64,000 nucleotides of DNA from an uncultured Candidatus Saccharibacteria bacterium. Lineage in GTDB: Bacteria; Patescibacteriota; Doudnabacteria; UBA920. The position numbers were made by a program, and so were the translations under genes. Where the stretch lies: assembly GCA_964474825.1 (NCBI GenBank), contig CAYYWQ010000001.1, positions 165,609-229,608 on the forward strand, in the 5' to 3' direction. Under the pieces are notes generated by a model. The model was given only the letters and a program-made list of their open reading frames with translations. It was not told the origin of the DNA and ran no database searches. Of this stretch, positions 196 through 43,715 are shown in pieces; position 1 is the first letter of the stretch, and every line of letters begins with the position of its first letter.

Positions 196-232
196 AAAAA
201 CCCTTCAACTTTTTTTGAAGGGTTTTTTATTG
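196..232. terminator. Intrinsic terminator hairpin (aaaaacccttcaa...ttgaagggttttt) with flanking T/A runs; bidirectional
   Basis: Perfect 11-bp inverted repeat with T-run, seen directly. Confidence 0.6.
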
Positions 233-333: not shown

Positions 334-3300
334 ATGAATCAAAAAATTTATAAGCTCCTGGGGGCTTGGACAGCTTGCATGCTGGCCATTATATTAATTG
401 GTTTTCAATCCAGTAGCTTTGACAGCTATACGAGTGTTTTAATTTCTGACAGTCCGCAGCTGCATCCAAAAGTTTTAGGAATAACTACAATTGTTTTGCA
501 GCAAGGTTTAAATAGCTACTCCGGCACCGTGGACAGGCAAGTTGGGGGAGCGAGCAATGCCGCGTTTTCCAGTGTGGCCGCGCCTTCAGTTTTTTTGTTT
601 CGCTATGGCGCCCCAAGCAGTTCTGCCAATACCCGTTACAATTATTTGTTGTGGTTTGACGTTTCTTCGATTCCTTCCGATGCCGTTGTTCAATCCGCCA
701 CCTTAACTTTAAAGTCCGGCACCGTGTACGTCCCTGCTACGGTACACGTAAAAAAAATAATTGACCCCAATAATTTAGGGTCACCCTTTACGCAAGGATG
801 GTCAATTGAGGGCAACGCTAATACCACCCAGTTTCGGGTTGGAGGCAATGCGGCGTTCCGAAACCAAACCGGGAGCAGTGCCGGGGTAAAATGGACTACC
901 GCCGACTCCGTAGATGAAAACACTCACATTGAAAATGCGACCGCGGCTGAAGAATCCGGCGCGGCAACAACCTGGAGCAGCAATCAAACTTTTTATGACC
1001 ATGTGGTTACCCAAAGTGTCCAGTCTTGGATTAGCGGTTCTGCCGCTAACCAGGGTTTTTTAATTTACGCGGACGACACTGCCAACATCCAAAACAATCA
1101 CAGCGTGCAAGATGTTACTTTAGACAACCGCCCGAAGCTTACCATTATTTATAGTTCTTCTGCTTCCGTGGCCCCAACTCCTACTCCAACACCAACACCA
1201 ACGCCCACGCCAACACCTACGCCGACCCCAACTCCAACACCTTCCGGAGGCTCCGGAATTAGTCCGGTGTCCAATTCTTCATTTGAAGGTTTTGGTACCA
1301 ACAGTGGGGGAGTGTCTGGCAGTGTTGTCTGGGTTACTAACTTAAACAACAGTGGTGCAGGTTCCCTGCGCGACGCAGTCGCGAATGGCAGGAGTAATGT
1401 TTTGGTGAAATTTTCCGTAGCCGGGACAATTAATTTATCTACGGACTTAGTAGTCACGGGAAACCACGTAACTATAGACGGATTTTCTGCTCCCGCTCCC
1501 GGCATAACAGTTACCGCGACTGACAATGTTTTTGTCATTTCCGGTAACCCCCAAGGTCCGGATTCCACGGGTTCCAATATTGTAATTCAGGGATTAAAAA
1601 TAAGGAGCCCAGGGGGTGACGGTTTCCAAATTGCTTATAATGCCCACGACATAGTAATTGACCATAACTCCATTTATAACACCGGTGACGGTAATGTGGA
1701 TGTTACGGAAGGGGCTTATAATGTAACGGTGTCTTGGAACATAATGTATAAAAGCGGGCCCGGGGCTTCACTCCTCTCGACTGACGCTTCCAGGGTTTCC
1801 TACCATCATAATATTTTTTACGGCAATACGGACCGCAACCCCATAATCACCTCAACCAAAACGCGCAATTATTCAACCGGTCCGGCGCATACCGGCCCTG
1901 AGGCGGATATTCGCTATAACATTATGTGGGATTATGGTATTGGTACTTACTTCCTTTCCACTACAGATTCTTTAGCCACCGGAAATTCCGTGGCCAATTT
2001 GTATAAAAATAACGGCGTAACTAATCCCAGCGATGTCATTGTAAGGGCCCGTTTGTCGGGTACTGTTAATACCAACCGGGCGGATGTTTACGTTGCGGGG
2101 AACGTTTGCGTGCATGATTGCCGTGGTACAGCCTATTCTTACAACAATCTGGATGCGGCCTTTGCTTTTCTTACTGCGAACTCCCAGAACAACCAGTCCG
2201 CGGCCTTTACCGCGCCGACTATTTCCGGTCCTGCCGCCGGAGACCAGCAGGGTAAAATAACAGAATGGACAAAAGTTAAAAATGAGGCCGGAGTCGGTTT
2301 GATGTTTGCCGATGACGCCCCTGACGCAATTGTCCACTCCAATGTCTCAATTCCCGCAGCCACAATTTTTACTCAAACTTGGAACAGTGACTCTGGTTCC
2401 GTAGTTTCGCCCACTCCTACTCCCACCCCAACGCCGACTCCTACACCTACCGCAACCCCCACGCCGACCCCAACACCAAATCCGACCCCTACCCCGGACA
2501 TTACCGCCCCTGTTTTTTCCAATTTAGTCGGTAGTAATATTTTAACTACCTCTGCCGTGATTTCCTGGATAACAAACGAATCTGCGGACACTCAAGTGGA
2601 ATATGGGAAAACCACTTCTTACGGATCCTCTACGGTACTGGGTTCCTCTTTAATATTAAATCACTCAGTAACACTACTCGGTCTTTCGCCGAGTACCCTA
2701 TATCATTTTCGGGTAAAGTCCAGGGACGGCAGCGGTAACTTAGCCGTGTCAGCGGATTTTTCCTTTACAACCCAAGTCTTGGTAATCCCAACTCCCACAC
2801 CAACGCCCACTCCTACTCCAACTCCGGGACCAGGATCTCCAACCCCAACACCTACTCCAGGTTCGGGATCGCCAACCCCGACCCCGACCGCAGTCCCAAC
2901 AACTGCCCCCACAACTGGGTCTTCCGGTGGAGGCGGGGGGTCTTATGGCGGCGTGTCTGTTCCCACTACTATAGTTTTCATTCCGCCTTCCACCACGGTT
3001 TCCATGCCTCCGGTTTCAAACGGCACTACCAGCTCAGGCCTTAAGCTTGTAAACGACAAAGGAACTTATTATTTAATTCAAGATGGTAAACGCCAGGGCA
3101 TTACTAATCCGGGTATGCTTTATAGTTATGGCTTTAGTTTTAGCGACGCGAAACCGGCCACAGTCCAAGACCAGGCGTTGCCGGAAGGCGGCTTAATTTC
3201 GCCCGCGGACGGCAGTCTGGTTAAGAGCAAAGAAGACCCCACTGTCTATTTAATTTCCAATGCCCAAAGGTATGCCTTTGTGTCAGCCCAAGTCTTCACA

Positions 3301-3594
3301 GATTTAGGCTTTAAGTTTTCCTCAGTTTTAGTTGTCACTAATCCGGAATTGCAAATACTTTCCAGGGCTAACAATTTATCAAACTCCGCCCTTGCCCACC
3401 TTCCGGGTTTTGACATTAACCAAAGCGGCACTATTTACTGGATAGGTTACGACGGCAAAAAATATCCTTACCCGTCCCTACAAGTCTACAACTCCTGGCA
3501 CATAGACAATGACTTTAGCAGGGTTGTCCCTGCGAATGATGCAGATAAAAATATTCCTACAGGAGACAAGGTAAGTGAGAGGGTAGTGGAGTGA
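334..3594 (+). CDS. Giant secreted/cell-surface protein. Domains: N-terminal signal/TM, DNRLRE-like domain, right-handed parallel beta-helix (pectate-lyase-like) domain, FN3-like domain, conserved ~190-aa C-terminal domain, all joined by (PT)n linkers
   Basis: N-terminal hydrophobic segment. 'YLLWFDVSSIPSDAVVQSATLTLK...DNRPKLTIIY' fits the DNRLRE domain pattern. Beta-helix repeats 'IVIDHNSIYNTGDGNVDV...VSWNIMY'. FN3-like 'PDITAPVFSNL...LYHFRVKSRDGSGN'. PTPTPT linkers. Confidence 0.75.
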   Translation: MNQKIYKLLGAWTACMLAIILIGFQSSSFDSYTSVLISDSPQLHPKVLGITTIVLQQGLNSYSGTVDRQVGGASNAAFSSVAAPSVFLFRYGAPSSSANTRYNYLLWFDVSSIPSDAVVQSATLTLKSGTVYVPATVHVKKIIDPNNLGSPFTQGWSIEGNANTTQFRVGGNAAFRNQTGSSAGVKWTTADSVDENTHIENATAAEESGAATTWSSNQTFYDHVVTQSVQSWISGSAANQGFLIYADDTANIQNNHSVQDVTLDNRPKLTIIYSSSASVAPTPTPTPTPTPTPTPTPTPTPTPSGGSGISPVSNSSFEGFGTNSGGVSGSVVWVTNLNNSGAGSLRDAVANGRSNVLVKFSVAGTINLSTDLVVTGNHVTIDGFSAPAPGITVTATDNVFVISGNPQGPDSTGSNIVIQGLKIRSPGGDGFQIAYNAHDIVIDHNSIYNTGDGNVDVTEGAYNVTVSWNIMYKSGPGASLLSTDASRVSYHHNIFYGNTDRNPIITSTKTRNYSTGPAHTGPEADIRYNIMWDYGIGTYFLSTTDSLATGNSVANLYKNNGVTNPSDVIVRARLSGTVNTNRADVYVAGNVCVHDCRGTAYSYNNLDAAFAFLTANSQNNQSAAFTAPTISGPAAGDQQGKITEWTKVKNEAGVGLMFADDAPDAIVHSNVSIPAATIFTQTWNSDSGSVVSPTPTPTPTPTPTPTATPTPTPTPNPTPTPDITAPVFSNLVGSNILTTSAVISWITNESADTQVEYGKTTSYGSSTVLGSSLILNHSVTLLGLSPSTLYHFRVKSRDGSGNLAVSADFSFTTQVLVIPTPTPTPTPTPTPGPGSPTPTPTPGSGSPTPTPTAVPTTAPTTGSSGGGGGSYGGVSVPTTIVFIPPSTTVSMPPVSNGTTSSGLKLVNDKGTYYLIQDGKRQGITNPGMLYSYGFSFSDAKPATVQDQALPEGGLISPADGSLVKSKEDPTVYLISNAQRYAFVSAQVFTDLGFKFSSVLVVTNPELQILSRANNLSNSALAHLPGFDINQSGTIYWIGYDGKKYPYPSLQVYNSWHIDNDFSRVVPANDADKNIPTGDKVSERVVE

Positions 3595-3596
3595 CC

Positions 3597-3714
3597 TCTC
3601 TACTAAATACTAAAATAACTAAAAATACTAAAGCTATAATATTCCATATTACTATAATTTCTGGTTTCGTATTTAGTACATTTAGTCTACTTTAGTATTT
3701 AGTAGAAATAATTT
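3597..3714. repeat. Palindromic intergenic repeat, family A, coreless copy: ctactaaatactaaa...tttagtatttagtag inverted termini
   Basis: Termini are reverse complements. The same termini recur at 44891-44908, 50878-51012 and 58144-58272. Confidence 0.7.
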
Positions 3715-3715
3715 T

Positions 3716-6700
3716 ATGGATAAAATTATAAAAACCAACATGCATCCAAGAATAAAAATCCTAGCAGCTTTTGCCGGCACCTTGTTAGTCATGCTTATGC
3801 TCGGAGTGCAAACTTCGGACACCCTTTTGTATGTTGATAATATTTTAACTTCTACTGAATTAAACCAGCAGGGGAGAGTGTTAGGAGTTCAAACTGTAAC
3901 TTTTCAGCAGGGCAATAACGGCTACAGCGGTAATACTTCTGTGCAAATTTTTGGCCGGGCTCAGAACATTGGATATGACTACCAAACGTATAGGTATACC
4001 GGTTCCCTGCGTTATTATAATTTTGAACATTTTAATTTAGGAAATACTTCGTCATGGCAAAATGTTGTAAGCGCTAAGCTTAAACTGTATCGCACAGGGG
4101 GAAATGTTTATGCTCCTGCGGGAGTAAAAGTTTATTTAAGAAGAATAAATGACCCCGACAATTTAGGTTCTTCTTACGCAACCGGTTGGAAGGTAACGGC
4201 TGCGGACGGTTACCGAAACGGGGCTAACCAGGAATCTCGGGACGACTCCGTTAGTCCCGATGTTAAGTGGCAAAGTTCTGATCCAAGTTCCCCCGATGAT
4301 TTAGGCAATGACTATCTTCAAAATGTTTTAAAGCCCCTGGCCCAGTCTCCGTATTTTGTTCCAGCGCAGTCCGACCCTGTTGGCACCGAGTATATTTTGG
4401 ACGTTACGGACGATGTGGAATGTTTTAGGAGCGGGAATTGCAAAAACGAAGGTTGGACAACATATCATGAGGACGCGGCTAACATCCAAAATTTTATTGG
4501 CAACTCTCGGGCTGCTACGGCCAGTTACCGTCCATTGCTTGAGGTAACATTTACCAGTGGTGTTGTTTCCCCGACCCCGACGCCCACACCAACGCCAACA
4601 CCGACCCCAACTCCTACAGTAACACCAACTCCAACTCCCACTCCCACAGCAACCCCCACCGCATCGGTAACCCCAACCCCGACGCCTACAATTATTAGTA
4701 GTAGCGGTTTTTGGTATATTCGTCCAGACGGCGGCGACAGAAGCCAGTGTAACGGGCAAGTGGACGCATCATACCCGGGCAGCGGCACAAACCAGCCTTG
4801 CGGCTTTAAACACCCAAACTATCTTTTCACTACTGATCCCGGTGTCGGCCAGCCCGCAGAAATACCGACTTGGGTTATCGCGGGAGGGGATACTGTTATT
4901 ATTAAAAGAGGCGAATACCGAATCGGTTTTAAAATAAACGAAATCAAAGGCCACTGGAACTTTAAAGGTTGTCCTGGTGACGCCCCTAATTGTTTTAATC
5001 CCACTATTCCTGGCGGAACTGTTCAGAAACCGACTCGGATTTTAGGGGAAGGTTGGCAAAATCCTGATTCAGTAAAACCAAAATTAATGGGGGGAGTTTG
5101 GGTTGGCGCGGTTTTAAACCTAAAAGGAGCAAAAAATGTGGTAGTTGAAAATTTGGAAATCTCAGATTATGCACAATGCACTCCTACATCAAGCGGCCCC
5201 GATTTGTGTGTCCGCAGCGGCTTTCCCAAAAGCGACGCCGGACAAAACGGTATTGTTATAGACGCAAACACCGATAACCTAACATTACGTAATTTGAATA
5301 TCCACGGGCTTGCATCGGGTGGAATTTTTGGAGCTAATGCGGGTACTATAACAGCTGAAAATGTGCGTATTGCCGGTATTTCAAGTGGTGGTTGGAACTC
5401 CGATGATCCGGGTGATACATATGTAACCGGTACCCTAAATATAAAAAACCTACTATTAGAGTGGAGCGGCTGTGTGGAAGAATACCCTATAAGGAGCGCT
5501 TTGCCTTACTACAAATGTTATGACCAAGGCCATACTGGTTTTGGAGATGGCTTTGGTATTTTGGTTGGTGAAGGGGCCAAAATAAATATCGACCGTTCTG
5601 TTATACGCAATAATGTCCAAGATGGATTGGATATTCTTTATGTGCAAGGTAAGACCCCGGAAATAAAAATTACAAACTCCGCGTCTTACGCCAATGGTGG
5701 CCAGCAATGGAAATTTGGCCCGTTTAAAAAAGTGGATTTCTACAATAATTTAACCATCTCTAATTGTCGTCGAGGCGCCGAGGGTATGCCTGGACTGCCT
5801 GCAACTTTCAACGAAAATTTCACCGAATATTGCCGGGCTTTTGATGGGGTAATTTTAGCCTTCAAAGATGACGGCGTGGTAAATTGGTATAACAATACCT
5901 TTGTTGGCTATAATTCAACTATTTTTGACCTTCAGAGTGAAGTGGCTAATGAGGTATTTGATTCAAACGGAAGGCGTGGCGTGCTGCCAATAAAATCATC
6001 CACCATTTCTTCCAGTATAGAAAGATTGTTTCCTGACCCAAGTATAAAGCCGGATGGTAAACGTAAAACTTTTGACCTAAGCTATCTTCCTTTTGATATT
6101 ACCTATGCGGGGGTCAAGGTTAATGGAGTCAATCAAACTTCTGGAGAGCCAGGAAAGGACGCGTCGGCCGTGTGGTGGTGGAGCCCAGCAACTAAAACTC
6201 TCACTCAGGATCCTTCCGCTCCGGCTCTTGCCTCCAACGATGTCTTGTCTGTGATCTACACCCCTAAAGGATGGGCTGATAATGCCCGCTTTAATTATGG
6301 CAATAATATTTTCCGTGGCTATACCCGTTTGTTCAATACGTTGGTTCCTCCCAATTTGTTTTATACTTTTGGTGTAGACTTGGATAAGCTTATGCCTGCA
6401 ACGACCCGTAGAAAAAATTTAATTTGCGGTGTTCGTACGGTGGGCTGGAAGCCCGCGGCGGAAGAAACTTATTTAACCAGTTGCCCTGGAACGTGGCTAA
6501 AAAACGAACCGATGTCATTCACTAAAGAAAGTGATTTGGATGTTTTGGATTTAAGGTGGGCTGCCAATTCACCGGCAAAAGGCGCGGGGATTGACCTTGG
6601 TATTGGCCTTGGGCCAAATATTGGTGCCAACGTAGATTTGGTCGTTGCAAGTTTTCCTCCGTCTCCAACCCCCACCCCCATAGTAACCCCAACCCCTTCA

Positions 6701-7795
6701 TCAACTCCTACCCCCACACCAACCCCAACTCCCACTCCCACATCTATCCCAACTCCAACCCCGGACATCACTGCTCCTGTAATCTCTAACCTAAGAGGTA
6801 GTTTAATTACTTCCTCTTCTGCAGTCATTTCCTGGAATACCAATGAGAATTCGAACACTCAGGTAGAATATGGATTAACCAATAGTTATGGAGCCTCTAG
6901 TTCCCTGGTTACTTCACTAGCCCTTGGTCATTCAGTAACCCTCATAGGATTATCTCCTAATACTTTGTATCACTTTAGGGTTAAATCTAAAGACGGTGCT
7001 GGTAATTTAGCAGTATCTGCAGACTTTAGCTTTACCACAGAAGCTACAGTTGTTCCCACCCCAACTCCTTCAGTTACACCAACCCCAACTCCTACTGTTA
7101 CTACTAGCCAAGACCCAAATGCTACTCCCACCCCAACCCCAGTCCCAACAGTAACTCCAACCCCTGTGCCAACCCCCACTCCTAAAGTCATTGTCTTCAT
7201 CCCTCCTGCTACTATTCCTTCACAGATTGTATCCACTAGGTTCAAACTAATAGACCAAAAAGGTACGTTCTATGTAGTGGCAGATGGAGAGCGAAGGGGA
7301 GTAACTAACCCTGGCATGCTCTACAGCTATGGCTTAAGCTTTGCCGATGCCAAACCAGCCACAGAAGCAGAACAAACTTTTCCTGAAGCAGGGTTGATTC
7401 TTCCGGCTGACGGCAGTTTAGTTAAAAGCCAAGAAGACCCAACGGTTTACCTCATCACCCAGGGACAAAGATTTGCTTTTGTTTCAGCCAAAGTCTTCTT
7501 AGGTCTTGGCTTTAAGTTTAACTCTGTATTAGTTGTTACCAATCCTGAGCTTCAGTCTATGGCAAAGGCAGACAACTTAACTAATGAAGCCATGCCTCAC
7601 CCTTCAGGCTTTGACATTAACGACAAAGGAACTGTCTACTGGATAGGTTATGACGGCAAGAAGTACCCTTACCCGTCCCTTTCTGTTTACAACTCCTGGC
7701 ACATAGACAATGACTTTAGCAGGGTTGTTCCTGCTAACACGGCAGATCGTAATCTCCCTACGGGAGAGAATGTTAGTGAGAGGGTAGTGGAGTAG
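3716..7795 (+). CDS. Giant secreted/cell-surface protein, paralog of 334-3594, with the same domain order (DNRLRE-like, beta-helix, FN3-like, conserved C-terminal domain, PT linkers)
   Basis: C-terminal ~190 aa nearly identical to the upstream paralog (KLxxxKGTxY...YNSWHIDNDFSRVVPAN...SERVVE). FN3 block 'PDITAPVISNL...LYHFRVKSKDGAGN'. Beta-helix repeats. PT linkers. Confidence 0.75.
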   Translation: MDKIIKTNMHPRIKILAAFAGTLLVMLMLGVQTSDTLLYVDNILTSTELNQQGRVLGVQTVTFQQGNNGYSGNTSVQIFGRAQNIGYDYQTYRYTGSLRYYNFEHFNLGNTSSWQNVVSAKLKLYRTGGNVYAPAGVKVYLRRINDPDNLGSSYATGWKVTAADGYRNGANQESRDDSVSPDVKWQSSDPSSPDDLGNDYLQNVLKPLAQSPYFVPAQSDPVGTEYILDVTDDVECFRSGNCKNEGWTTYHEDAANIQNFIGNSRAATASYRPLLEVTFTSGVVSPTPTPTPTPTPTPTPTVTPTPTPTPTATPTASVTPTPTPTIISSSGFWYIRPDGGDRSQCNGQVDASYPGSGTNQPCGFKHPNYLFTTDPGVGQPAEIPTWVIAGGDTVIIKRGEYRIGFKINEIKGHWNFKGCPGDAPNCFNPTIPGGTVQKPTRILGEGWQNPDSVKPKLMGGVWVGAVLNLKGAKNVVVENLEISDYAQCTPTSSGPDLCVRSGFPKSDAGQNGIVIDANTDNLTLRNLNIHGLASGGIFGANAGTITAENVRIAGISSGGWNSDDPGDTYVTGTLNIKNLLLEWSGCVEEYPIRSALPYYKCYDQGHTGFGDGFGILVGEGAKINIDRSVIRNNVQDGLDILYVQGKTPEIKITNSASYANGGQQWKFGPFKKVDFYNNLTISNCRRGAEGMPGLPATFNENFTEYCRAFDGVILAFKDDGVVNWYNNTFVGYNSTIFDLQSEVANEVFDSNGRRGVLPIKSSTISSSIERLFPDPSIKPDGKRKTFDLSYLPFDITYAGVKVNGVNQTSGEPGKDASAVWWWSPATKTLTQDPSAPALASNDVLSVIYTPKGWADNARFNYGNNIFRGYTRLFNTLVPPNLFYTFGVDLDKLMPATTRRKNLICGVRTVGWKPAAEETYLTSCPGTWLKNEPMSFTKESDLDVLDLRWAANSPAKGAGIDLGIGLGPNIGANVDLVVASFPPSPTPTPIVTPTPSSTPTPTPTPTPTPTSIPTPTPDITAPVISNLRGSLITSSSAVISWNTNENSNTQVEYGLTNSYGASSSLVTSLALGHSVTLIGLSPNTLYHFRVKSKDGAGNLAVSADFSFTTEATVVPTPTPSVTPTPTPTVTTSQDPNATPTPTPVPTVTPTPVPTPTPKVIVFIPPATIPSQIVSTRFKLIDQKGTFYVVADGERRGVTNPGMLYSYGLSFADAKPATEAEQTFPEAGLILPADGSLVKSQEDPTVYLITQGQRFAFVSAKVFLGLGFKFNSVLVVTNPELQSMAKADNLTNEAMPHPSGFDINDKGTVYWIGYDGKKYPYPSLSVYNSWHIDNDFSRVVPANTADRNLPTGENVSERVVE

Positions 7796-7804: not shown

Positions 7805-7838
7805 AAAATCCCCGTCACATATGTGACGGGGATTTTAA
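7805..7838. terminator. Bidirectional intrinsic terminator (ccccgtcacatatgtgacgggg) between the giant protein gene and rplT
   Basis: Perfect 9-bp stem with flanking A/T runs. Confidence 0.7.
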
Positions 7839-8191: not shown

Positions 8192-8265
8192 ATGGTTAGC
8201 TGGTAGCTTGTAGGGGGTAGCTGGTAGGCCTGCATTGCTACAGACTACTAACTACTTCCTACTGG
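8192..8265 (-). repeat. Intercistronic structured repeat, copy 1 (rpmI-rplT spacer)
   Basis: About 70 nt nearly identical to the 8461-8534 spacer (ggtagcttgtag...ctacaagctac inverted repeats). Confidence 0.6.
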
Positions 8266-8460: not shown

Positions 8461-8534
8461 AGTTTTAGTTGGTAGCTTGTAGTGAGTAGCTGGTAGGCCT
8501 GTATTGCTACAAGCTACTAACTACTTCCTACTGG
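8461..8534 (-). repeat. Intercistronic structured repeat, copy 2 (infC-rpmI spacer)
   Basis: Near-identical to 8192-8265. Confidence 0.6.
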
Positions 8535-9041: not shown

Positions 9042-9068
9042 AGTTTTTGTCTTTAAGACTTGTATAAC

Positions 9069-16452: not shown

Positions 16453-16476
16453 CAAACATTAATTTATAATTTAGTT

Positions 16477-16526: not shown

Positions 16527-16529
16527 TAT

Positions 16530-27974: not shown

Positions 27975-30900
27975 TTATGGAAGAGATATGTTGCTATTTT
28001 CATCAAATTCTTTTTCCTGCTCTACGCCAAAGAACGCATATTTTATTTTGCCCTTCTTAGAGATTCCTTCATCTGGGTCTCCTCCAATTCTATTTGTCAG
28101 CTGAATTGTAAGCGTACCGTTTACAATAGATTTATTTAGCTGTTCTGTAATATCAATAATTTTTTCAGAATGGGTGCCATAAGTTGCTTTTACTATCTTA
28201 AACTTGTCTTTAGCCCCAAGATTTTTCAACAATGTTTTGCCTGTTAGTCGCTCACTCGACCCCTCAGGATTTTGATAAAGCTCTAAACCATATTGTTCAA
28301 TTTCACTAATAAATGAAGTCTTTTTTTCGAACAAAAGTTTATGTGCAAATAAAATATTAACCAAACTTTCCTTTTGTGGTAATGGTGTCTTTTTTAGTAT
28401 TTCAAATAGCTTTCTAGGTAAACCTTCTTTCCTGCTCTTGGGGATGTTTTGAATAACATTCCCACTTTGAAGGTAGCCTGAAATTTTGTTTTTCACCTCT
28501 TGGGATTCGCCATCATTATCAAGAATTGCTAGCCATACATCTAATAACTTTTCCTTGTGCTCATCACTCAATAGATTATATGAAGGAATGAGAAAACTGT
28601 GAGTTAAAAATCGCTGATCTAAATCTGTAAAACTAGCCGACCATTCTAAAAGCTTATCAAATATTCCATCTAAGAAACCATCATTTAGTTGTGATCGAAT
28701 TAACTCTATCTTTTGTAAAGCGAAGCGAATATTAACAAAATCTTTGGACTCGATTATAATTTGTTTTAAGCCCTCCAAATACAAGGTCTTCTTTTTGCTT
28801 GCATCAATACCGTTCAAGCCTTCTAACAGGAGAGTTTTTTGACCTTCGTCAACACTTGGTTGCAAGACTCTTTCAACTATAGATCTTTTTAAATCAGTTA
28901 CAAATTCTACTTTTTCTTCAGCAAATTTTAATAACAAACTCTTTATATCTTGGAATTCGTTACTTGAAGAAATTTGTTGTTCATAGACTTTTTTAAAATC
29001 ATCTTTGGCTGTTTCTGAAGCCTGCGAGAGTTTATTTATAAGGTTAACAATATCAAGCTTTAGCTTTTGTGGTATTACTGGATTGTTAATATATAAAATA
29101 TAATGGGGGGCTACTACCTCATAATAATCTTTTGTTATTTTTTCTTCCTTAATTATATTAATATAAAAATTAAGTACCGCTTCCTTTCCAGGGTTCCATT
29201 CTGGAATTTTGGGATTTGTAATAAATCCATTTAAGTTATTTAATAATTGGGCAATTTGCTTTTTGCTTAAAAATGGTATTATCTGAGAATTAACTTGCAA
29301 AGTTTTAGTACTCAACTCATCCAATGAACTAGGGTCGTTAGTGATAGTATTTAGACCATAAATAAGTTGGTCTATAAAACCTTCGCTAATAAATGATTTG
29401 GTGACTGTTTTGTTGGCTAGCAATAGTAAAGAAGTGTCTAAAACAGAAACCTTAAGATTATTATCTTGATAATATCGATAAATTAAATCTGAGATTTTTG
29501 TTTTGATTTGGGAAGTAAGTATGTCAACATTTTTGGAATAGGTCTCAATGATCTTGTTAAGTACCACTTTAGGATCATCACTCTCCAAAACTTTTGAATG
29601 CTCATCAAGGATTAGATCGCGCTGAGTAAATTGAGTTTTTGTATTACCGTTCAAGACTTTAAAAAGACTTTCGGATTTATAAGAACCTGCTTTAGCAAGA
29701 TGTGGAGTTTTGGCCGCTGATTGTGTAAATGCGTCTGCCAGTTTAGCTTTATATCCATCTGGAATTAAATCAAATATGGATAGAACCATATTTAAAATAT
29801 TGAAAACAGAAGCAAATTTATTTTGTCTTTGCTCTTGATTCAAGAGCGAACTAATTTGCTGAACTATATTTTGTTTCTCCTGCTCATTCGACTTTTTAAT
29901 TGTACTTAAGACAGACTCTTCTCTACCACTAATCAAAGAAATTTTAAGTTCCGAGCTTACGCCTAATACCCCGGCATAACCCTCTCTTTTTAAATTTATG
30001 AATTGTTCAAGCTTTAAAGATTGATATGGCCTTGATGCTTGTAGAAAATCAGAAAGGTTCTGGTCTTCAAGTTGCTTTTTTATCTCCTTTATTTTAGGTC
30101 CGTCTTCTGTACCGTTTCTCAAGTAAGTATCTGCGACTTGAAGGGCATCGGAATCATCAAGAAGAACTTTAAAGAAATTTGGCCATTCTTCTTGTAAGAT
30201 AATTAATTTGGATAAAAATGTGAGGTTGTTAGTTACTAGGCCTGTATCAATGTTTCCGAGCTCCTCTTGAGCTAAGGCTAAAAGATAGGTCGTACTTAAA
30301 TTATTGTAAAACTGCTTTATCTTTCTAGGAGTATGAGAAAAAGCATTTAAAACTAAATTGGCAATATTATCTTTTTCCTCATCGTCCTTAAATGGAATTG
30401 CAATCTGACATGAAATCTTGCTAATATACTTTTCTAAATCTCCTTTGAGAAAAGGTGATAAGCGTACTGTAACTTGAAAGAACTTCTTTAAAAAATCTCT
30501 GCTCTGAAGATCTTTTTCATTAGCACCAAGGTCGTCAGTTATAAGACCTTTTTTTAAATGATTCAATAGTGCCCCTTCGTCTACAGGAACAATATAAAGG
30601 CATCCATCGATATTTAAAAAAGTTTTTATTGTGCCTAATAATTCAATTGCTATTTCATTTGTGCACCTATCAAGATTATCAATTACGATAACGATTTTTT
30701 TAAACTTTTTCTTTGCAGTACTAACATATCTTTTAAAGACTTCCTCAAATTGCTCATCAGAAAATAAAGGACTATTTTCTTCGACCCAGTCTTTGACTTT
30801 AATCAAATTTTTAAGACCACTAACACCTCTAGATAAAATTGTTGCTAAGGAACTTGGCACTAATACTAAAACAATTTTATAAAACCATTCAATATTATAG

Positions 30901-31406
30901 TTAAATTGCCACAAGAACGAGGCTGCTAAAATAATCAAATACCAAAAGATAAACTGTAAAACCAAATTTTTTACTTCTTCTTTATCCCAGTATAAGTTGT
31001 AAGACTGTTTTTTTGTTGTTACCGTCGTATAAAAGATTAGTTTTAAATTATCATCAATATCTAAATCTGCTTTCATTTTGGCAAGAAACTGACGATAAAA
31101 AGCATTCTTTTGGTATTTCCAAGCATCAAAATACACGAAGCCAATATCTGATGCAGATTCTTGTAGTCTCTTTCTAAGAAATTTATTAACCAAAGTTGTT
31201 TTTCCAACTCCCCATTTACCCAAAACCCCAACTACAAAAGGCGTCTTAGCCTCCTTTGTAATAGCTTCAAGAGTATCAACATAGTGCTCATACCCAAATT
31301 CATCGAGATCCGAAGGTTCATCAATTAATAGAAGAGATTGGCCTTTTGCAAGAAGGTCTTTAAATTCTTTATCTTTCTTGTTATTCCACCAGCTTGTGAT
31401 GTCCAT
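27975..31406 (-). CDS. KAP-family P-loop NTPase (1143 aa) with TM helices inserted in the NTPase domain
   Basis: Walker A GVLGKWGVGKTT; TM pair LVLQFIFWYLIILAASFLW / IVLVLVPSSLATIL; KAP signature IVIVIDNLDRC. Confidence 0.8.
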   Translation of the reverse strand: MDITSWWNNKKDKEFKDLLAKGQSLLLIDEPSDLDEFGYEHYVDTLEAITKEAKTPFVVGVLGKWGVGKTTLVNKFLRKRLQESASDIGFVYFDAWKYQKNAFYRQFLAKMKADLDIDDNLKLIFYTTVTTKKQSYNLYWDKEEVKNLVLQFIFWYLIILAASFLWQFNYNIEWFYKIVLVLVPSSLATILSRGVSGLKNLIKVKDWVEENSPLFSDEQFEEVFKRYVSTAKKKFKKIVIVIDNLDRCTNEIAIELLGTIKTFLNIDGCLYIVPVDEGALLNHLKKGLITDDLGANEKDLQSRDFLKKFFQVTVRLSPFLKGDLEKYISKISCQIAIPFKDDEEKDNIANLVLNAFSHTPRKIKQFYNNLSTTYLLALAQEELGNIDTGLVTNNLTFLSKLIILQEEWPNFFKVLLDDSDALQVADTYLRNGTEDGPKIKEIKKQLEDQNLSDFLQASRPYQSLKLEQFINLKREGYAGVLGVSSELKISLISGREESVLSTIKKSNEQEKQNIVQQISSLLNQEQRQNKFASVFNILNMVLSIFDLIPDGYKAKLADAFTQSAAKTPHLAKAGSYKSESLFKVLNGNTKTQFTQRDLILDEHSKVLESDDPKVVLNKIIETYSKNVDILTSQIKTKISDLIYRYYQDNNLKVSVLDTSLLLLANKTVTKSFISEGFIDQLIYGLNTITNDPSSLDELSTKTLQVNSQIIPFLSKKQIAQLLNNLNGFITNPKIPEWNPGKEAVLNFYINIIKEEKITKDYYEVVAPHYILYINNPVIPQKLKLDIVNLINKLSQASETAKDDFKKVYEQQISSSNEFQDIKSLLLKFAEEKVEFVTDLKRSIVERVLQPSVDEGQKTLLLEGLNGIDASKKKTLYLEGLKQIIIESKDFVNIRFALQKIELIRSQLNDGFLDGIFDKLLEWSASFTDLDQRFLTHSFLIPSYNLLSDEHKEKLLDVWLAILDNDGESQEVKNKISGYLQSGNVIQNIPKSRKEGLPRKLFEILKKTPLPQKESLVNILFAHKLLFEKKTSFISEIEQYGLELYQNPEGSSERLTGKTLLKNLGAKDKFKIVKATYGTHSEKIIDITEQLNKSIVNGTLTIQLTNRIGGDPDEGISKKGKIKYAFFGVEQEKEFDENSNISLP

Positions 31407-31427
31407 AATTATAATTTATACAAAAGT

Positions 31428-32570: not shown

Positions 32571-33992
32571 ATGACAGAAAAGCAAACAAAAGAAATAGAA
32601 AGCAATATACTGAAACTAGATAATGTGTTAAAGAAAAAATATACTTCCAAGCTGGAAGTTAATTTTGATTTGAAGAGAACCCTAGTTAGTTTTCAGGCTA
32701 ATAAAATAGAATCTGGGTACCGTTGGTATAAATTTAAAGAAGGGTTCTCGTCATCTCTAGTTAAGTATTGTCTTAAAAAAGCAGGTTTAAAGAAAGGTAA
32801 AATACTTGATCCCTTTGCAGGAAGTGGTACTTCATTGTTTGTTGGTGTTGAGGAAGGACTGGATGCCACAGGAATCGAGTTATTGCCCATAGGTCGTGAA
32901 ATTATAAAAGCCAGAGAATTCGCATTACAGACAGATAAAGAAAAACTAAGGTCCATAATAGCAGATTGGATAAAGAATAAGCCTTGGAAAGACCCCAAGA
33001 TAAAAGCCAAGCACTTAAAGTATTTAAATATTACTAAGGATGCTTTTCCCGATGAGACCGAGGTTGAGCTAGGTAGATATCTAACATATTGTGAAAAATT
33101 AAAGGACAAAGACCTGTCTCAGTTTTTTAGATTTGCTGCATTATGTATTTTAGAAGAAATTAGTTATACACGAAAAGATGGTCAATATTTAAGATGGGAT
33201 CACAGGTCACGTAGAACTAATGGCAGTAAAATTTTCAACAAAGGATTAATAAAAACCTTTGACCAGGCTATTAGTTCAAAGTTAGACCAAATTTGTATAG
33301 ATTTAAATAAAGAAGAAATTGATTTATTTTCAAAGGTTGGAAATAAAGAAATCGGAAGCATAGAATTGCTTGAAGGATCTTGTTTAGATGTTCTCCCTAA
33401 GCTTAAAGCTAAGAGCTATGACTTTGTTATGACTTCTCCACCTTATTGCAATAGATACGATTACACTCGTACCTATGCTTTAGAATTAGCCTTACTTGAG
33501 GTAGAAGAACAGGAATTGAAAGATTTAAGACAGACAATGCTTTCCTGTACAGTTGAAAATAGAGAAAAGAGTGATTTGAAAAATAAATTTTCTAGAGAGG
33601 TTTTTGAAGAAGCTTCAAAGGCATTTGATTCTCAAAAGCTCTTAAAATCTATACTAGATTATCTAGAGATATTAAAAAAAGAAAAAAAGCTCAATAACAC
33701 TGGGATCGTCAGAATGATCCGTAACTATTTTTATGAAACAAGCTTAGTAATATTTGAATGCTCCAGAATTCTGAAATCTGGTGGATACTTTTTCATGGTC
33801 AATGATAATGTTAGGTATGCCAGTATAAACATTCCTGTTGATCTTATTTCTTCAGAATTTGCCAAAGCAGCCGGATTCAATGTAGAAAAAATATGGGTCT
33901 TACCAATAGGAAAAGGCAATAGTAGCCAACAAATGGGACTACATGGAAGAGAGGAATTGAGAAAATGTGTCTACGTCTGGCGCAAAATCTAA
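32571..33992 (+). CDS. DNA methyltransferase (N4-cytosine or N6-adenine; alpha-class motif order I then IV)
   Basis: SAM motif I ILDPFAGSGTS; catalytic motif IV TSPPY. Confidence 0.8.
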   Translation: MTEKQTKEIESNILKLDNVLKKKYTSKLEVNFDLKRTLVSFQANKIESGYRWYKFKEGFSSSLVKYCLKKAGLKKGKILDPFAGSGTSLFVGVEEGLDATGIELLPIGREIIKAREFALQTDKEKLRSIIADWIKNKPWKDPKIKAKHLKYLNITKDAFPDETEVELGRYLTYCEKLKDKDLSQFFRFAALCILEEISYTRKDGQYLRWDHRSRRTNGSKIFNKGLIKTFDQAISSKLDQICIDLNKEEIDLFSKVGNKEIGSIELLEGSCLDVLPKLKAKSYDFVMTSPPYCNRYDYTRTYALELALLEVEEQELKDLRQTMLSCTVENREKSDLKNKFSREVFEEASKAFDSQKLLKSILDYLEILKKEKKLNNTGIVRMIRNYFYETSLVIFECSRILKSGGYFFMVNDNVRYASINIPVDLISSEFAKAAGFNVEKIWVLPIGKGNSSQQMGLHGREELRKCVYVWRKI

Positions 33993-34888
33993 AGAGAAAT
34001 TAGCCAGGATATTAAGCCCTCAAACTGAGTATCAGAATTTAGATTAGCTGCACAAGCTAGTCTTTTTTCTTGTAGCTGGTTGTAAATCTCTACTGCCATA
34101 GCATTCTCAATTGCAGCACCTACGAAAAATAATTTAGGCTTATTTTTATTATCTTCAAAGACTTTTCTAATTCTGTCTAAAGCACTATTGGCCGTTTTCC
34201 AATGTTCATCTGCTCCAGCAGGGTCAATTCCTCCCTTTAATTCACCACACGCAAGATAACGATTCTTATCATTAAAAATGTCTTTAGTGATTTTAGTTAA
34301 GCCTGTTGTGTCGAGTAGAATTGCATCAATATTTTTACCAATTAGAGCAGGCTTGAAATCAAAAACCAAAAATCTTTTTGGCCAAGTAAGGCTTTGAACT
34401 TTCCCAGAATCACTTGCTTTAGCTTCGAGTTCAATCTTCTTTGCTTTCAATTTTTTTACTATAGCACCAGCTAATTTGTTACCTGCTAATGCCCCAGTCT
34501 TATTCCTTGAAATACCTCCTAATGTATCGCCCTTGGTAAGTAAGTATCTATACACAAGCTCTTGAGTAAAATTGTCTCCGGCAGTAATTTGATATTTATT
34601 TAAAGCCTCTTTTAAGGCTGCCTTTAAGTCTTCCTCAGAAAGGTGATTAATGGCTTTATCAGAAAACCCAACCGCAGCAATTAACTCCAGTCTATGATGC
34701 GAAAAAAACTCAGGTTTGAAAATATCCTCAATAGTTTTTACTTTTGATAATCCTTCTTTAAATGTCTCTGCTTTTACTAAGTAAGGATGAGCACTGCTTT
34801 CTTTAAAAAGTGCTTGCGTTAAAAACCCCTTCCTTACATTGTACGGGGAAGTAACCAAATCCTCTGGCTTATCAATTGAGTCAGTCAT
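33989..34888 (-). CDS. Putative Type II restriction endonuclease, convergent and overlapping stop codons with the methyltransferase
   Basis: Tail-to-tail 4-bp overlap with the MTase, typical R-M arrangement; no recognisable family. Confidence 0.45.
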   Translation of the reverse strand: MTDSIDKPEDLVTSPYNVRKGFLTQALFKESSAHPYLVKAETFKEGLSKVKTIEDIFKPEFFSHHRLELIAAVGFSDKAINHLSEEDLKAALKEALNKYQITAGDNFTQELVYRYLLTKGDTLGGISRNKTGALAGNKLAGAIVKKLKAKKIELEAKASDSGKVQSLTWPKRFLVFDFKPALIGKNIDAILLDTTGLTKITKDIFNDKNRYLACGELKGGIDPAGADEHWKTANSALDRIRKVFEDNKNKPKLFFVGAAIENAMAVEIYNQLQEKRLACAANLNSDTQFEGLISWLISL

Positions 34889-35021: not shown

Positions 35022-36899
35022 CTATTTCCATTTATCAATTAGGGTCATTGTTTCGTTCCTTGGTGCATATTTCTTTTCTATTTCCCCAATATCAACTACA
35101 ACAGGGACTTGTGCCAGTAAGCCTGCAAGTATACAAGTTCCCGTGGGTAAAATTGGTATGTAGTCAAAAGACACCTTATCCAAAAAAGAAATAGTCTTTT
35201 CGACAGCCTTTATGTCTTCTTGGTTAATTAGTCTGTGTAGGAAGTAATTATGAAGTTGAGAAATTATTGTTTGAGAAATATCTGAAGGTCTCTGGCTAGC
35301 AATAGTTAGGAATACCCCAAATTTTCTCCCTTCTTTTATTATTTCTTCAAAAGTTTCTAATCGATAATCTTTCCATTGTTCACTTTCTCTTTCTGAATCG
35401 TCGGATAAGATATTATGAGCCTCGTCGATAATAATGTTTAGGAAAGTGTTATCGTGTTTTTTCTTTTTTTCATTATATAAGCTCTTGCAAAGAAGCAATG
35501 GAAGTATTTTTCTAATATGGATATCTTCAACGTCTTTAAATGATACAATGGTTATATTTGGTTTTATATTGTTTGAATCTTGTGTTTGAACATCTTTAAC
35601 TTCAATAACCTTTTCTAATTCAGGGTATCTGCTATCCATTCTTTTAATTAAAGGAGATAAGTGCTCACGGTTTGCATGACCTTTAATAATATCGTCATAA
35701 TATTTTATAACAACCTTTAATCTAATAAGATTTATACTTGAATGGTTAAATTCTAGTTCGTCAATAATTCCTTTTAAAGGTTGAAGAATGTCCGTATTAA
35801 TACCTTCTTGACCATATTGATCAGTTGCCCCAATGTTCATATAAGAGCCTGTGGTTCCATTGAAGCCTAATTTTTCACTAAGAATATTTTTTGCATCTTC
35901 AAGCTTTTCGAAATTATTTACGCTAGTATATAAATCAGAAAATAATTCTATAAAAATTTTTGATCCCAAATTTTTATCTTTTTTATCAATCGTTTCTTTT
36001 ACCATCGAATACAATTTCGTTCTTAAGTTAGCATTAAAATTATCTCCTTCAAAGATTCTTTTCAAAGCACGGCTTGTCATAACGCTTCTCAAAAAGGGAG
36101 TTTGTGTTTTTTCAGTTGCCTCCAAATATATAGCCCAAAATATGGGATCGTTTAAAGTCTCTTCCGATACAGGAAATTTTTTACTTTCTTGACCTAACCT
36201 CGTTGAAAGTTTATAAATGTTTTTATATTTTTCTTCTACTATCCCATTTGGGTGATCGTATTCCCCATTAAAATCAACTAAGAAAAATTGAGCCTTTTTC
36301 TTAAAGCCATTGTTGTCTTTATATTTTTCAAAAAGTTCGTGGTAAATTTTTGCTAAGGTATAGGATTTACCACTGCCAGTATTTCCGAATATACCGATAT
36401 GACTTGCAAAAAGACTATTGATACCCACTCCTATACGCTGTCCTTTTTCAAGCGACAGCACACCAATATATATAGGTTCGTCAGTTCCTTTTATGAAATT
36501 ATGGACTTGGTCAAATTCATCTTTTTCCAACAAATAGCATTCATTATCAATCAAGGGGAGCTCTTTTATACCTCTTTCAAAATTTTGCCCCTCAAAAAAT
36601 CCTAACAAGCTAATGCTTAGAGTCCTGCTAATTTTATCTCCTTCATTTTTATAACTCTTTTCTGCAAACTGTTTATCTTCAGTGACAAACTCACCGTCAA
36701 CTTTTCCAATAATTTTTATAAAACCTTTTGCTATTTTAACGTACCCTCCGACTGATATGTTTTTTAAAAGCTCCCCTCTATATAAAAGATTTGAGGAGTT
36801 TTTACTTTTATCAACCTTTACTTTTATCACCCTGCCTTCAACAGAGATGACCTTTCCTATTTTAAAAATAGAATCTTTTAATAGAGAGTCGTCGTTCAT
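35022..36899 (-). CDS. HerA-like (DUF87) ATPase, partner of the SIR2 protein
   Basis: Walker A GNTGSGKS; Walker B IIIDEAHNIL; 625 aa. Confidence 0.75.
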   Translation of the reverse strand: MNDDSLLKDSIFKIGKVISVEGRVIKVKVDKSKNSSNLLYRGELLKNISVGGYVKIAKGFIKIIGKVDGEFVTEDKQFAEKSYKNEGDKISRTLSISLLGFFEGQNFERGIKELPLIDNECYLLEKDEFDQVHNFIKGTDEPIYIGVLSLEKGQRIGVGINSLFASHIGIFGNTGSGKSYTLAKIYHELFEKYKDNNGFKKKAQFFLVDFNGEYDHPNGIVEEKYKNIYKLSTRLGQESKKFPVSEETLNDPIFWAIYLEATEKTQTPFLRSVMTSRALKRIFEGDNFNANLRTKLYSMVKETIDKKDKNLGSKIFIELFSDLYTSVNNFEKLEDAKNILSEKLGFNGTTGSYMNIGATDQYGQEGINTDILQPLKGIIDELEFNHSSINLIRLKVVIKYYDDIIKGHANREHLSPLIKRMDSRYPELEKVIEVKDVQTQDSNNIKPNITIVSFKDVEDIHIRKILPLLLCKSLYNEKKKKHDNTFLNIIIDEAHNILSDDSERESEQWKDYRLETFEEIIKEGRKFGVFLTIASQRPSDISQTIISQLHNYFLHRLINQEDIKAVEKTISFLDKVSFDYIPILPTGTCILAGLLAQVPVVVDIGEIEKKYAPRNETMTLIDKWK

Positions 36900-36911: not shown

Positions 36912-38072
36912 TTAGTCCGAAATCTTTTTAACAATTTTGCTAAATATTTCTTTGTCAATATTTTGTAAATTCAATTCAAACATATCTTCTTTCTTCCCTT
37001 GAAGCCTAGCTATTAGAGAGCCGGCTTTTTGGGGAGGAGTTAAAATATGAATATTATTGTTTTTGATTTTATCAAAATCAATAATTTTTCTAAGCGTCTT
37101 TTCTGTGTTTGTAGAATGAGCGAGAATAAAAATTCTCAATGTTGGGTTAGAATCCGCAGCCCTTAACGTAAGCGCTCTTATATGCTGGTCTCTAAAGGAA
37201 AAACCCATAACAAATAAAACGGTGTTTTCTTTTTCTAACTCGTTTGAGTAAGACCTTAGCAATCCATAATAGGTTTCATTAAGAACTGTATCCTTTAATT
37301 TTGCTTCTGTAGGGTTAACAATGGCAAAATCTTTGTAGCTTGCCATAAATTGTTTAATTTCGTCAATACATTTTAGGCCATTAGATTTTTTTATTAAATC
37401 TTGTTCCTTATCTTTTTTGTCGATAGTAATAATTTTATCTTTTGGAATTTTGATCTCATTTAATTTTTTAATAAGTTCTAAATTCGATGAAAATTTTATT
37501 TCCTTATTTTCGATTTGCCAAGTTAAAGATCCGTGCATTTTTAACACATTAAATACTGGTATCTCCGAGGTGTTGTCGTAATAAAGACTTTTTTTAAAAT
37601 AAGATTTTTTAAAATTACCTAGATTAAAAGCAGGTTTAAATCTGCCACAGAAACCATCATTAAATTCAAGGCCACTTTCCTCTAAACTTTTTTCTAAAAA
37701 TAAATCAATATTGGTTGTAAACAAATTTGCCTGTTTGCAAAAAATATTTTTTCTTTTTAATAACAAAGTGTTTATAGATGTTAAAAAGTTTCTATAATTT
37801 TGTAAGACTTCATTTGGTTCATTTTCATTTTGTAGAATCCCGACATTTTTTGAAATTACTCCGTCAAAGTAGTGTTTGTAAAGCGATGACGTGATAATCT
37901 CTTTTTGTTCGGCTTCAACTATTTGGTTTTTATTCTCTTCAAAAATCCCAAGTAAATTTTCTATATTTTCTAGGCAATCTAAATACGGTCTCGACATCCC
38001 AGCCCCAATTAAAAAGTTTATGTTTGCACTTTCTATTACACTTTGTATTTCGTCTAGGTTATGTGTATCCAT
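36912..38072 (-). CDS. SIR2-like (SIR2_2 family) NADase-domain protein of a SIR2-HerA defence pair
   Basis: NFLIGAGMSRP, FTTNIDLFLE (TTNYD-like) and KMHGSL motifs. Confidence 0.7.
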   Translation of the reverse strand: MDTHNLDEIQSVIESANINFLIGAGMSRPYLDCLENIENLLGIFEENKNQIVEAEQKEIITSSLYKHYFDGVISKNVGILQNENEPNEVLQNYRNFLTSINTLLLKRKNIFCKQANLFTTNIDLFLEKSLEESGLEFNDGFCGRFKPAFNLGNFKKSYFKKSLYYDNTSEIPVFNVLKMHGSLTWQIENKEIKFSSNLELIKKLNEIKIPKDKIITIDKKDKEQDLIKKSNGLKCIDEIKQFMASYKDFAIVNPTEAKLKDTVLNETYYGLLRSYSNELEKENTVLFVMGFSFRDQHIRALTLRAADSNPTLRIFILAHSTNTEKTLRKIIDFDKIKNNNIHILTPPQKAGSLIARLQGKKEDMFELNLQNIDKEIFSKIVKKISD

Positions 38073-38143: not shown

Positions 38144-38487
38144 GGGGTGGATTCCGATATAATTTAAATAACAACTGAATAAAGTAGCCTAAACCACTAG
38201 TAATATTGGCATGGCGAAAAAAACCACAGAAATGTAAAGACGGTCACCTGTCTTGTCTTAACCATTTCTGTGGTCACTATCCGAAAGGGTAGCGGGGCAA
38301 GCGGGTGGCCTTTTTTGATTCCCGTAGAAAGGTTAAAAATATGTGCTTTAGTCCGTTCGATAATACTTGGCATTTTGTATACTTGATTGTTTGGACTGTT
38401 ATTTGGACAATCATTGGGTACGGACTTCGTAAGTCAGAAAAAGGTGGCAGCTTTTAGCTGTCCTTTTTAATTGCTAAGTTATTTTAT

Positions 38488-43158: not shown

Positions 43159-43715
43159 ACCCGGGTCCAAAACTTCTCAACTTTTCCATTGTTCACAAGA
43201 TTAGTCAGCTCATAAACTTTAACGACAGGAGCTGACCAGATATCGCCAAAGGTGATTTACTTAGCTTAGGCTAACCTGCGCAAATCAACCAGGTTAACTG
43301 CAGCCCCAATAAACTTGCTGGACCGTGGTCGGGGCGGACCGCGGGGCAAGGCATTAACTTAAAATTAAGCTAATACAGGTTGTAACTGGGCGTTTTGAAA
43401 CGCGGCTACTACCTTGTTCCAAGCTGTTGTAGCATTTGGATTTGATTACGGCATTTTTACGAGTGAGTAATCATTCTCGTCTTGCATATAGAAAAATGTT
43501 AAAGTCCTGTCAAAATCCGTCATCCCCAGTATGACAACCTTGCAATTGTTCGCTGTCTTACAGACTAAACCATTACAAAGTATTTTCCTAAGGGTGCCCA
43601 CAAATAGAGCGTTTTGCATAACCTACAGCTCACAAAGGAGGTTTGCAAGGTTGCTCTACTGGGCATCCCCACAGGAAGACTATTTTACCACAAAAATGCG
43701 TTGTGGACAAGTGCT

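Follow-up and report, generated by a model that had tools for sequence, protein, structure and literature searches.

In a 64,000-nucleotide stretch (the window) of contig CAYYWQ010000001.1 from an uncultured Candidatus Saccharibacteria bacterium (GenBank assembly GCA_964474825.1, positions 165,609 to 229,608), assigned by GTDB to the Doudnabacteria, two adjacent genes on the same strand end in a common C-terminal module. The module is a tandem array of three repeats and is predicted to adopt the repeat fold of EccB, a subunit of the mycobacterial type VII secretion machine. By analogy, it is considered a putative portable anchor or targeting module that would bind the cell wall non-covalently, with a probability of roughly 0.55. 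The products of both genes are predicted to be multi-domain surface proteins, exported by the Sec route and active on glycans, in a Doudnabacteria-like bacterium of the Candidate Phyla Radiation (CPR). The CPR, or Patescibacteria, form a very large and mostly uncultured bacterial branch whose members are attached to other cells, and the building and decoration of their surfaces are poorly understood.

Three tandem repeats with an EccB-type fold

The tail of both proteins consists of three tandem repeats of ~60 amino acids (aa), and hhalign comparison of its thirds gave probabilities of 97.6, 96.7 and 94.9. An earlier note on this DNA had described a single C-terminal domain of ~190 aa; a common module of 185 aa was indeed found, composed of three repeats instead of one domain. 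Structure prediction, which the note had proposed as a check, yielded an AlphaFold model of the gene 1 module (aa 902–1086) from 29 sequences with a predicted local distance difference test score (pLDDT) of 95.9 and a predicted template-modelling score (pTM) of 0.88. In every repeat of the model, a helix follows the first three strands, and a fourth strand and a second helix come after it. EccB1 repeats have been described as a four-stranded sheet plus two helices in ~55 aa (Wagner et al., PMC4769845), and the same arrangement is present in the module model. The gene 2 module matched the hidden Markov model (HMM) of the family with E = 2.8e-91.

When the model was compared with the PDB by Foldseek, the top 11 matches were all EccB chains (EccB1, EccB3 and EccB5 of ESX-1, ESX-3 and ESX-5), with E from 6.5e-5 to 7e-3 and probabilities up to 1.0. 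These were the sole significant matches, being followed by a gap to E = 0.19. At the level of the predicted structure, the tail is a triple repeat of EccB-type fold. Further down the list for the gene 1 model came low-probability four-bladed hemopexin and designed symmetric propellers, which may reflect pseudo-symmetric packing of the three four-stranded repeats. Among viral models (BFVD), the best matches were small two-repeat actinophage proteins, with template-modelling scores of 0.70–0.74 and root-mean-square deviations of 2.6–2.7 Å, while phage M23, lysozyme and CHAP proteins matched more weakly.

The periplasmic repeats R1–R4 of EccB (PF05108, TIGR03919; PDB 4kk7, 5ebc, 3x3n, 7nps and 6sgy) likewise comprise ~55–60 aa folded as a four-stranded sheet with two helices, and in both cases tandem copies lie outside the cytoplasmic membrane. 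Nevertheless, the module lacks the N-terminal cytoplasmic segment, transmembrane helix and central core domain of EccB. The module has three contiguous repeats, whereas EccB has two pairs flanking its core, and it forms a terminal tag on enzymes, whereas EccB is a subunit of a secretion machine. It also falls under the score cutoffs of the EccB families, and no ESX genes were found among the 20 open reading frames (ORFs) of the window scanned against Pfam. As modelled, the tail shares the EccB repeat fold yet is not an EccB. A weak similarity of the EccB1 repeats to PlyCB, a phage protein that binds the wall, has in turn been described (PMC4769845). Unlike the module, PlyCB (4f87) is a polypeptide of its own, of 8 kDa, which assembles into a ring in the lysin PlyC of streptococcal phage C1.

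At the sequence level the module has no Pfam or NCBIfam model, in agreement with its earlier description as uncharacterised. Its sole match is a weak one to Pfam EccB (E = 0.12, 11.4 bits versus a cutoff of 27), with no match to TIGR03919. In a relative with 13 repeats, the summed score exceeds the Pfam EccB cutoff (39.3 versus 27), and TIGR03919 is matched with E = 2e-10. A profile of the whole tail matched only the FN3 parts of the alignment. Identification of the tail as a Por-type domain of the type IX secretion system (T9SS), an LPXTG signal or another catalogued anchor had been named as the outcome that would speak against the earlier description. In the C-terminal 185–207 aa, no match to the T9SS C-terminal domain (CTD), LPXTG, PEP-CTERM, SLH, CWB2, LysM, SH3b or choline-binding models was obtained (Pfam E ≤ 10, NCBIfam E ≤ 1). 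The C-terminus ends in ...SERVVE with neither a hydrophobic tail nor an LPXTG motif, and no literature was found under 'EccB-like' or 'PlyCB-like'. Pfam DUF7743 (PF24893) reached a summed 32.8 bits inside the repeat array of one relative (P0130, aa 1385–1409); this DUF and the repeat family may overlap in part, and the module of the window gave no match to it.

Distribution of the module and its proposed role as a wall anchor

A word-indexed search identified 45 close homologues of the module, all of them at the protein end. Other genomes, whose search the earlier note had also recommended, were scanned with a trimmed module alignment. The scan of GTDB species genomes located 23 loci, all in metagenome-assembled genomes (MAGs) of Patescibacteria labelled Ca. 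Doudnabacteria, "Patescibacteria group", "MAG: bacterium" or "uncultured Ca. Saccharibacteria". The module lies 0–4 residues from the stop in 22 of the 23 loci and is followed by an 11-residue tail in the remaining one. The carriers range from 350 to more than 2180 aa, and their heads include Laminin_G_3, malectin, cohesin, beta-helix, Big_7, Big_2, FN3 and CHB_HEX domains. An exhaustive HMM search retrieved 3535 representatives (clusters at 50% identity) with E ≤ 1e-3, 211 of them with E ≤ 1e-30. Among the best 150 representatives the triple repeat is at the extreme C-terminus in 101 and N-terminal, directly after the signal peptide, in 8; a fourth repeat is added in 10, longer arrays of up to 13 repeats occur in 22, and 9 are partial matches.

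Relatives with multi-repeat arrays are often joined to peptidoglycan hydrolases, SpoIID being present in 9 of 20 and Amidase_2 in 7 of 20. In a Ca. Portnoybacteria genome (GCA_011049555.1, locus L026, 1058–8946), one protein combines Amidase_2, seven EccB-like repeats and SpoIID. Its gene immediately precedes those for glycosyltransferases, a Wzy-type polymerase and an LCP (LytR-CpsA-Psr) protein, and the neighbourhood is, by its gene content, a predicted wall-polymer synthesis cluster. Two loci carry proteins of ~390 aa made of a cohesin and the module (L006, 2882–4054; L010, 5371–6555), and at a third (L003, 677–3804) a cohesin-FN3-Big_7-dockerin protein is encoded directly upstream of a module-bearing one. 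These arrangements suggest that in Doudnabacteria-like MAGs the EccB-like triple repeat anchors a scaffold resembling a cellulosome. Clostridial anchoring scaffoldins (cohesin plus SLH) have the same cohesin/dockerin layout, with the module here in the place of SLH.

The tandem arrangement recurs in GCA_964477805.1 (L001, 1767–8522), where two large genes end in the same module and have different heads, one a Big_7/CHB_HEX protein of 1177 aa and the other a beta-helix-like protein whose sequence is broken by a masked run of N. The position of the present pair, convergent on rplT-infC-Nramp (window 7844–10533), recurs in at least two related genomes, at L006 and L017, with L20 80% identical. 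The product of the module-bearing gene at this site measures between 390 aa and more than 2179 aa; the site itself appears conserved, with surface proteins that differ greatly from genome to genome. Across the 23 loci, no conserved accessory or processing gene was found beside the carriers.

In the proposed mechanism, the module would bind a glycan of the cell wall, either peptidoglycan or a wall polymer attached to it, non-covalently and would thereby retain secreted enzymes on the cell's own wall, or direct them to a wall. Three copies of the repeat would give avidity, as in the PlyCB ring, and the (PT)n segments and FN3 domain would be stalks keeping the beta-helix heads off the wall. The main support for this best-supported reading comes from the portability of the module across heads and termini, its relatives fused to peptidoglycan hydrolases, and the predicted EccB/PlyCB-type fold. 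The cohesin heads add to the case. The guess of an anchoring or attachment module made in the earlier note is favored on indirect evidence. The window contains an alanine racemase gene (18875–20290), which indicates that the organism makes wall precursors.

Several observations weigh against wall binding. Peptidoglycan binding by the EccB repeats is stressed to be a hint only (PMC4769845), and in ESX structures these repeats serve protein assembly. PlyCB was not among the Foldseek matches of the module model, so that the similarity between the two is second-hand. The sequence-level link to EccB is thin: neither a single-repeat profile nor the 13-repeat protein P0046 retrieved an EccB among PDB sequences. 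The module is mildly acidic (isoelectric point, pI, 5.1–5.4), and therefore provides no charge argument for binding anionic wall polymers. Moreover, a second anchor would not be strictly needed if the N-terminal segment were an uncleaved anchor, and sequence cannot separate binding to the self wall from binding to a foreign one.

Swappable anchor modules of the SLH and CWB2 types have been described (bioRxiv 10.1101/2025.04.02.646754). SLH and CWB2 of Firmicutes are likewise three-repeat terminal modules carried by many unrelated secreted heads in one genome, although they have no sequence or fold relationship to the present module and the lineage differs (Patescibacteria). A broader and more tentative proposal, which we place somewhat short of even odds, is that Doudnabacteria-like bacteria, and other CPR bacteria with longer arrays, generally use the repeat to anchor proteins for surface display. 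The triple repeat would then correspond to SLH/CWB2 without having been recognised as such, would bind either peptidoglycan or a glycopolymer of the wall, and would tether enzymes, lectins and a cohesin–dockerin scaffold, possibly also serving attachment to a host wall.

The module might instead be a targeting domain for the wall of a foreign host or prey cell, with the lyase-like heads sent to its envelope or capsule during episymbiotic attachment or feeding, in the manner of the binding domain in a phage lysin. Bacteria of the CPR are commonly episymbionts, the heads resemble capsule or exopolysaccharide depolymerases, and relatives are fused to amidases and SpoIID. The actinophage proteins among the BFVD matches, together with the weaker phage M23, lysozyme and CHAP proteins, point in the same direction, as does the fold class shared with a phage lysin subunit, PlyCB, according to the literature (PMC4769845). 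However, fusions to SpoIID and amidases are typical of housekeeping enzymes that remodel their own wall, and cohesin-plus-module proteins beside a dockerin protein resemble scaffolds on the self surface. A peptide-pattern scan of IMG/VR, sensitive to close relatives only, returned no relatives, and the lineage has no known host; foreign-wall targeting is considered unlikely. It is more doubtful still that the module is an ordinary carbohydrate-binding module (CBM) that holds the soluble or environmental polysaccharide degraded by the heads and has no anchoring role. The order of PT linker, FN3 and terminal binding module does recall secreted glycanases such as cellulases with PT linkers, the module is rich in aromatic residues (11–12%), and the heads are carbohydrate-active or lectin-like. 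Nevertheless, it follows heads of very different expected substrates, including the protein-binding cohesin, its strongest enzyme association is with peptidoglycan hydrolases, and no CBM family matched it in Pfam.

An oligomerisation or lattice unit, which would build an S-layer-like coat or enzyme multimers and would resemble the PlyCB ring in this, would agree with the mutual packing of EccB repeats in a multimeric periplasmic assembly (7nps, 7np7) and with the prediction of the three repeats as one compact unit. The carrier heads are, however, too diverse for a single lattice, and the arrays of 5–13 repeats in hydrolases would better suit multivalent ligand binding, which makes this role improbable. 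Least probable of all is a C-terminal secretion or sorting signal read by a dedicated machine, of the T9SS CTD, LPXTG/sortase or PEP-CTERM type. The placement of most copies at or within a few residues of the C-terminus is what such a signal would predict. The sorting-signal reading is contradicted by the copies that are N-terminal, after the signal peptide, or internal in arrays, and it was rejected on these copies and on the absence of a conserved partner gene at the 23 loci. The proteins also have Sec-type signals at the N-terminus, and the tail shows none of the hallmarks of a sorting domain in motif, hydrophobicity or Pfam and NCBIfam matches.

On the wall-anchor reading, the tail is an uncatalogued module, putatively of the wall-anchor type, that makes use of an already known repeat fold. 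Searches of metagenomes with the repeat could inventory the proteins displayed on CPR cell surfaces, and, joined to a fluorescent protein, the module could be used to stain these cells or their hosts or to pull them out. Through the fold in common with EccB, wall glycans also become a testable class of ligand for the EccB periplasmic repeats, which are still unexplained in the mycobacterial type VII secretion core. If the broader proposal of a general surface-display anchor is true, it would be the first functional clue to the ligand of these EccB repeats. What makes the finding valuable is the module, which gives access to CPR surfaces and a clue to EccB, and not the tandem gene pair.

Catalytic heads and history of the gene pair

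A sequence search of the PDB related the gene 1 head to solved PL1 lyases, namely VexL (6fi2, E = 3.8e-9), the pectate trisaccharide-lyase of Thermotoga (3zsc) and Jun a 1. The alignments cover the VIDH, GDGNVDV and HHN...RNP motifs. In PL1 lyases generally, these are the Ca-binding and catalytic-base motifs. The head combines homology to PL1 structures with the vWiDH motif, the Ca-binding acidic motif (aligned as DGxxD with the Vi-antigen depolymerase VexL) and the catalytic RxP motif; it differs in having no second Arg of the canonical RxPxxR, reading RNPIIT instead. A partial match to NCBIfam PelZ was also obtained (E = 1.8e-11). With Pfam Beta_helix (PF13229, gathering cutoff 25.9), gene 1 scored 20.4–22.3, and gene 2 scored 25.0 as a whole protein and 28.1 as an isolated head. 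For gene 1, we infer the beta-helix fold from PL1 homology.

The beta-helix fold of the gene 2 head was confirmed by a predicted model and Foldseek. The AlphaFold (AF2) model, calculated from 28 sequences with a pLDDT of 85.7, is a right-handed beta-helix and matched PL9 rhamnogalacturonan lyase, Pel9A, GH136 lacto-N-biosidases, alginate lyase and phage capsule depolymerases. PL9 (Pel9A 1ru4, 5olq), GH136 and phage tailspike depolymerases share with it the same right-handed parallel beta-helix (probability 1.0, E from 2e-5 to 1e-3), although identity is only 10–15%, and a sequence search of the PDB found no relative. Among the scored candidates the head has 394 homologues at E ≤ 1e-5 that form an unannotated sequence family; lengths of ~570 aa are frequent among those listed, and the small number assigned to a named organism are acidobacterial. 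An argument from the 'Choice-of-anchor Q' family was dropped, the NCBIfam model being a 58-aa motif that ends an acidobacterial homologue and does not match gene 2. From the matches to PL1 lyases and to PL9, GH136 and depolymerases, respectively, both heads are predicted to be beta-helices of a glycan-cleaving, lyase- or hydrolase-type. Both genes appear to carry a beta-helix, as the earlier note had proposed under the name of a pectate-lyase fold; nevertheless, pairwise protein and DNA comparison detected no sequence similarity between the two cores, and no common origin was apparent.

The same note had called the last ~190 codons near-identical and had deduced recent duplication or gene conversion. 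Identity between the tails is lower: 73% in protein over 185 aa (70% over a 207-aa BLASTP alignment) and 73% in DNA over 543 nt. Differences at first, second and third codon positions number 37, 22 and 89 across 181 codons, a pattern that points to duplication long ago, with purifying selection since. The DNA identity, the heavily diverged third positions and the non-homologous heads led to the rejection of both a recent duplication and a wholesale conversion. The genes are not simple paralogs; from sequence comparison they are mosaics, in which common N-terminal and FN3-plus-tail cassettes surround non-homologous catalytic cores. The pair would have arisen by an old duplication with shuffling of the terminal cassettes around different cores, followed by one small, recent conversion patch.

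That patch is an identical run of 41 nt, correctly quoted earlier and present exactly twice, at 3487 and 7688. It is longer than the divergence predicts (codon-shuffle permutation p = 2e-4). The same 14 codons show synonymous variation in 19 homologous loci of other genomes, where 24–33 of 42 bases equal those of gene 1. Constraint at the nucleotide level was rejected as the cause, since the synonymous sites of these codons vary elsewhere. With this variation and its excess length, the run is probably a short (micro) gene-conversion patch between the tandem copies, and only to this extent does the proposed conversion stand.

Gene layout, feature coordinates and other parts of the window

The ORF list agrees exactly with the two genes reported earlier, and the modular order of signal, DNRLRE-like domain, beta-helix, FN3 domain and common tail holds by domain scores, homology and models; the (PT)n linkers are visible in the translations. 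At 114 and 147 kDa, 'giant' overstates the size of the proteins. Each has one strong hydrophobic segment and no other (KD19 1.86 at aa 5 in gene 1 and 2.26 at aa 13 in gene 2), confirming the N-terminal signal or transmembrane segment, and both N-termini fit Sec export with a cleaved signal or signal-anchor. DNRLRE_dom (NF033679) was found in gene 1 with 38.2 bits versus a cutoff of 34 (E = 1.4e-9); Disaggr_repeat and TGFb_propeptide were sub-threshold in Pfam in the same region. The gene 2 N-terminus remained below the cutoff (24.1 bits, E = 3e-5, model positions 22–164), and is called DNRLRE-like because it is homologous to that of gene 1 (31–35% identity, E = 8e-22). As previously proposed, FN3 domains are present in both proteins, fn3 (PF00041) scoring 28.6 bits in gene 1 and 27.9 in gene 2 against a gathering cutoff of 25, and Pur_ac_phosph_N scoring 40.5 and 41.6 in the FN3 regions against a cutoff of 30. 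Apart from the tail, both genes appear to encode ordinary modular secreted glycanases of a CPR bacterium. A terminator scan of the 121-bp spacer between the genes was negative. The neighbours of the pair are rplT, infC, Nramp and pyrimidine genes.

Table 1. Coordinates, in the window, of the gene pair, its domains and other features.
Feature	Position	Strand	Details and basis
Gene 1	334..3594	+	1086 aa, 113.6 kDa, pI 5.3; ORF list, composition
Gene 1 signal peptide or signal-anchor	334..408	+	MNQKIYK followed by a 17-residue hydrophobic stretch
Gene 1 DNRLRE-like beta-sandwich domain	481..1158	+	~aa 50–275; NCBIfam NF033679
Gene 1 (PT)n linker 1	1168..1242	+	translation
Gene 1 PL1 pectate-lyase/VexL-like beta-helix head	1246..2403	+	aa 305–690; PDB sequence matches
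Gene 1 (PT)n linker 2	2404..2499	+	translation
Gene 1 FN3 domain	2506..2772	+	aa 725–813; Pfam
Gene 1 P/T/G/S-rich linker	2773..3036	+	translation
Gene 1 C-terminal module	3037..3591	+	aa 902–1086; R1 3037–3207, R2 3208–3390, R3 3391–3591
41-nt identical run, copy 1	3487..3527	+	exact match to 7688–7728
Intergenic spacer, gene 1/gene 2	3595..3715		121 bp, AT-rich, TATAAT-like boxes
Gene 2	3716..7795	+	1359 aa, 146.5 kDa, pI 5.4; ORF list, composition
Gene 2 signal peptide or signal-anchor	3716..3811	+	hydrophobic segment
Gene 2 divergent DNRLRE-like domain	3983..4549	+	aa 90–278; NF033679 below cutoff, homology to gene 1
Gene 2 (PT)n linker 1	4565..4690	+	translation
Gene 2 right-handed beta-helix head	4691..6640	+	aa 326–975; Pfam, AF2 model, Foldseek
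Gene 2 (PT)n linker 2	6641..6772	+	translation
Gene 2 FN3 domain	6773..7039	+	aa 1020–1108; Pfam
Gene 2 P/T-rich linker	7040..7237	+	translation
Gene 2 C-terminal module	7238..7792	+	R1 7238–7408, R2 7409–7591, R3 7592–7792
41-nt identical run, copy 2	7688..7728	+	exact match to 3487–3527
Terminator-like hairpin of upstream gene	196..227		followed by AT-rich promoter region for gene 1
Bidirectional terminator-like hairpin	7805..7836		14-bp stem; between gene 2 and convergent rplT
KAP-family NTPase	27975..31406		low-GC island
DNA methylase	32571..33992		low-GC island
BsoBI-type restriction endonuclease	33989..34888		low-GC island, with DNA methylase
HerA-like ATPase	35022..36899		adjoins SIR2-like protein
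SIR2-like protein	36912..38072		low-GC island
LOOT RNA	38186..38310		low-GC island
Large serine recombinase	41689..43158		abuts tmRNA gene
tmRNA gene	43137..43527	-	

A low-GC island at 27900–43550 (31–35% GC versus 40–46% elsewhere) holds the NTPase, restriction, ATPase and recombinase genes of Table 1, and looks like a defence island integrated at the tmRNA gene. A de novo pyrimidine block (10894–17435) encodes a dihydroorotase-like amidohydrolase, carA, carB and aspartate carbamoyltransferase; this biosynthetic capacity, together with the alanine racemase, is notable for a CPR-type genome. A 610-aa protein encoded at 59013–60845 contains the DUF11 repeat twice and matches DUF7619. It is without the EccB-like tail and is probably another surface protein.

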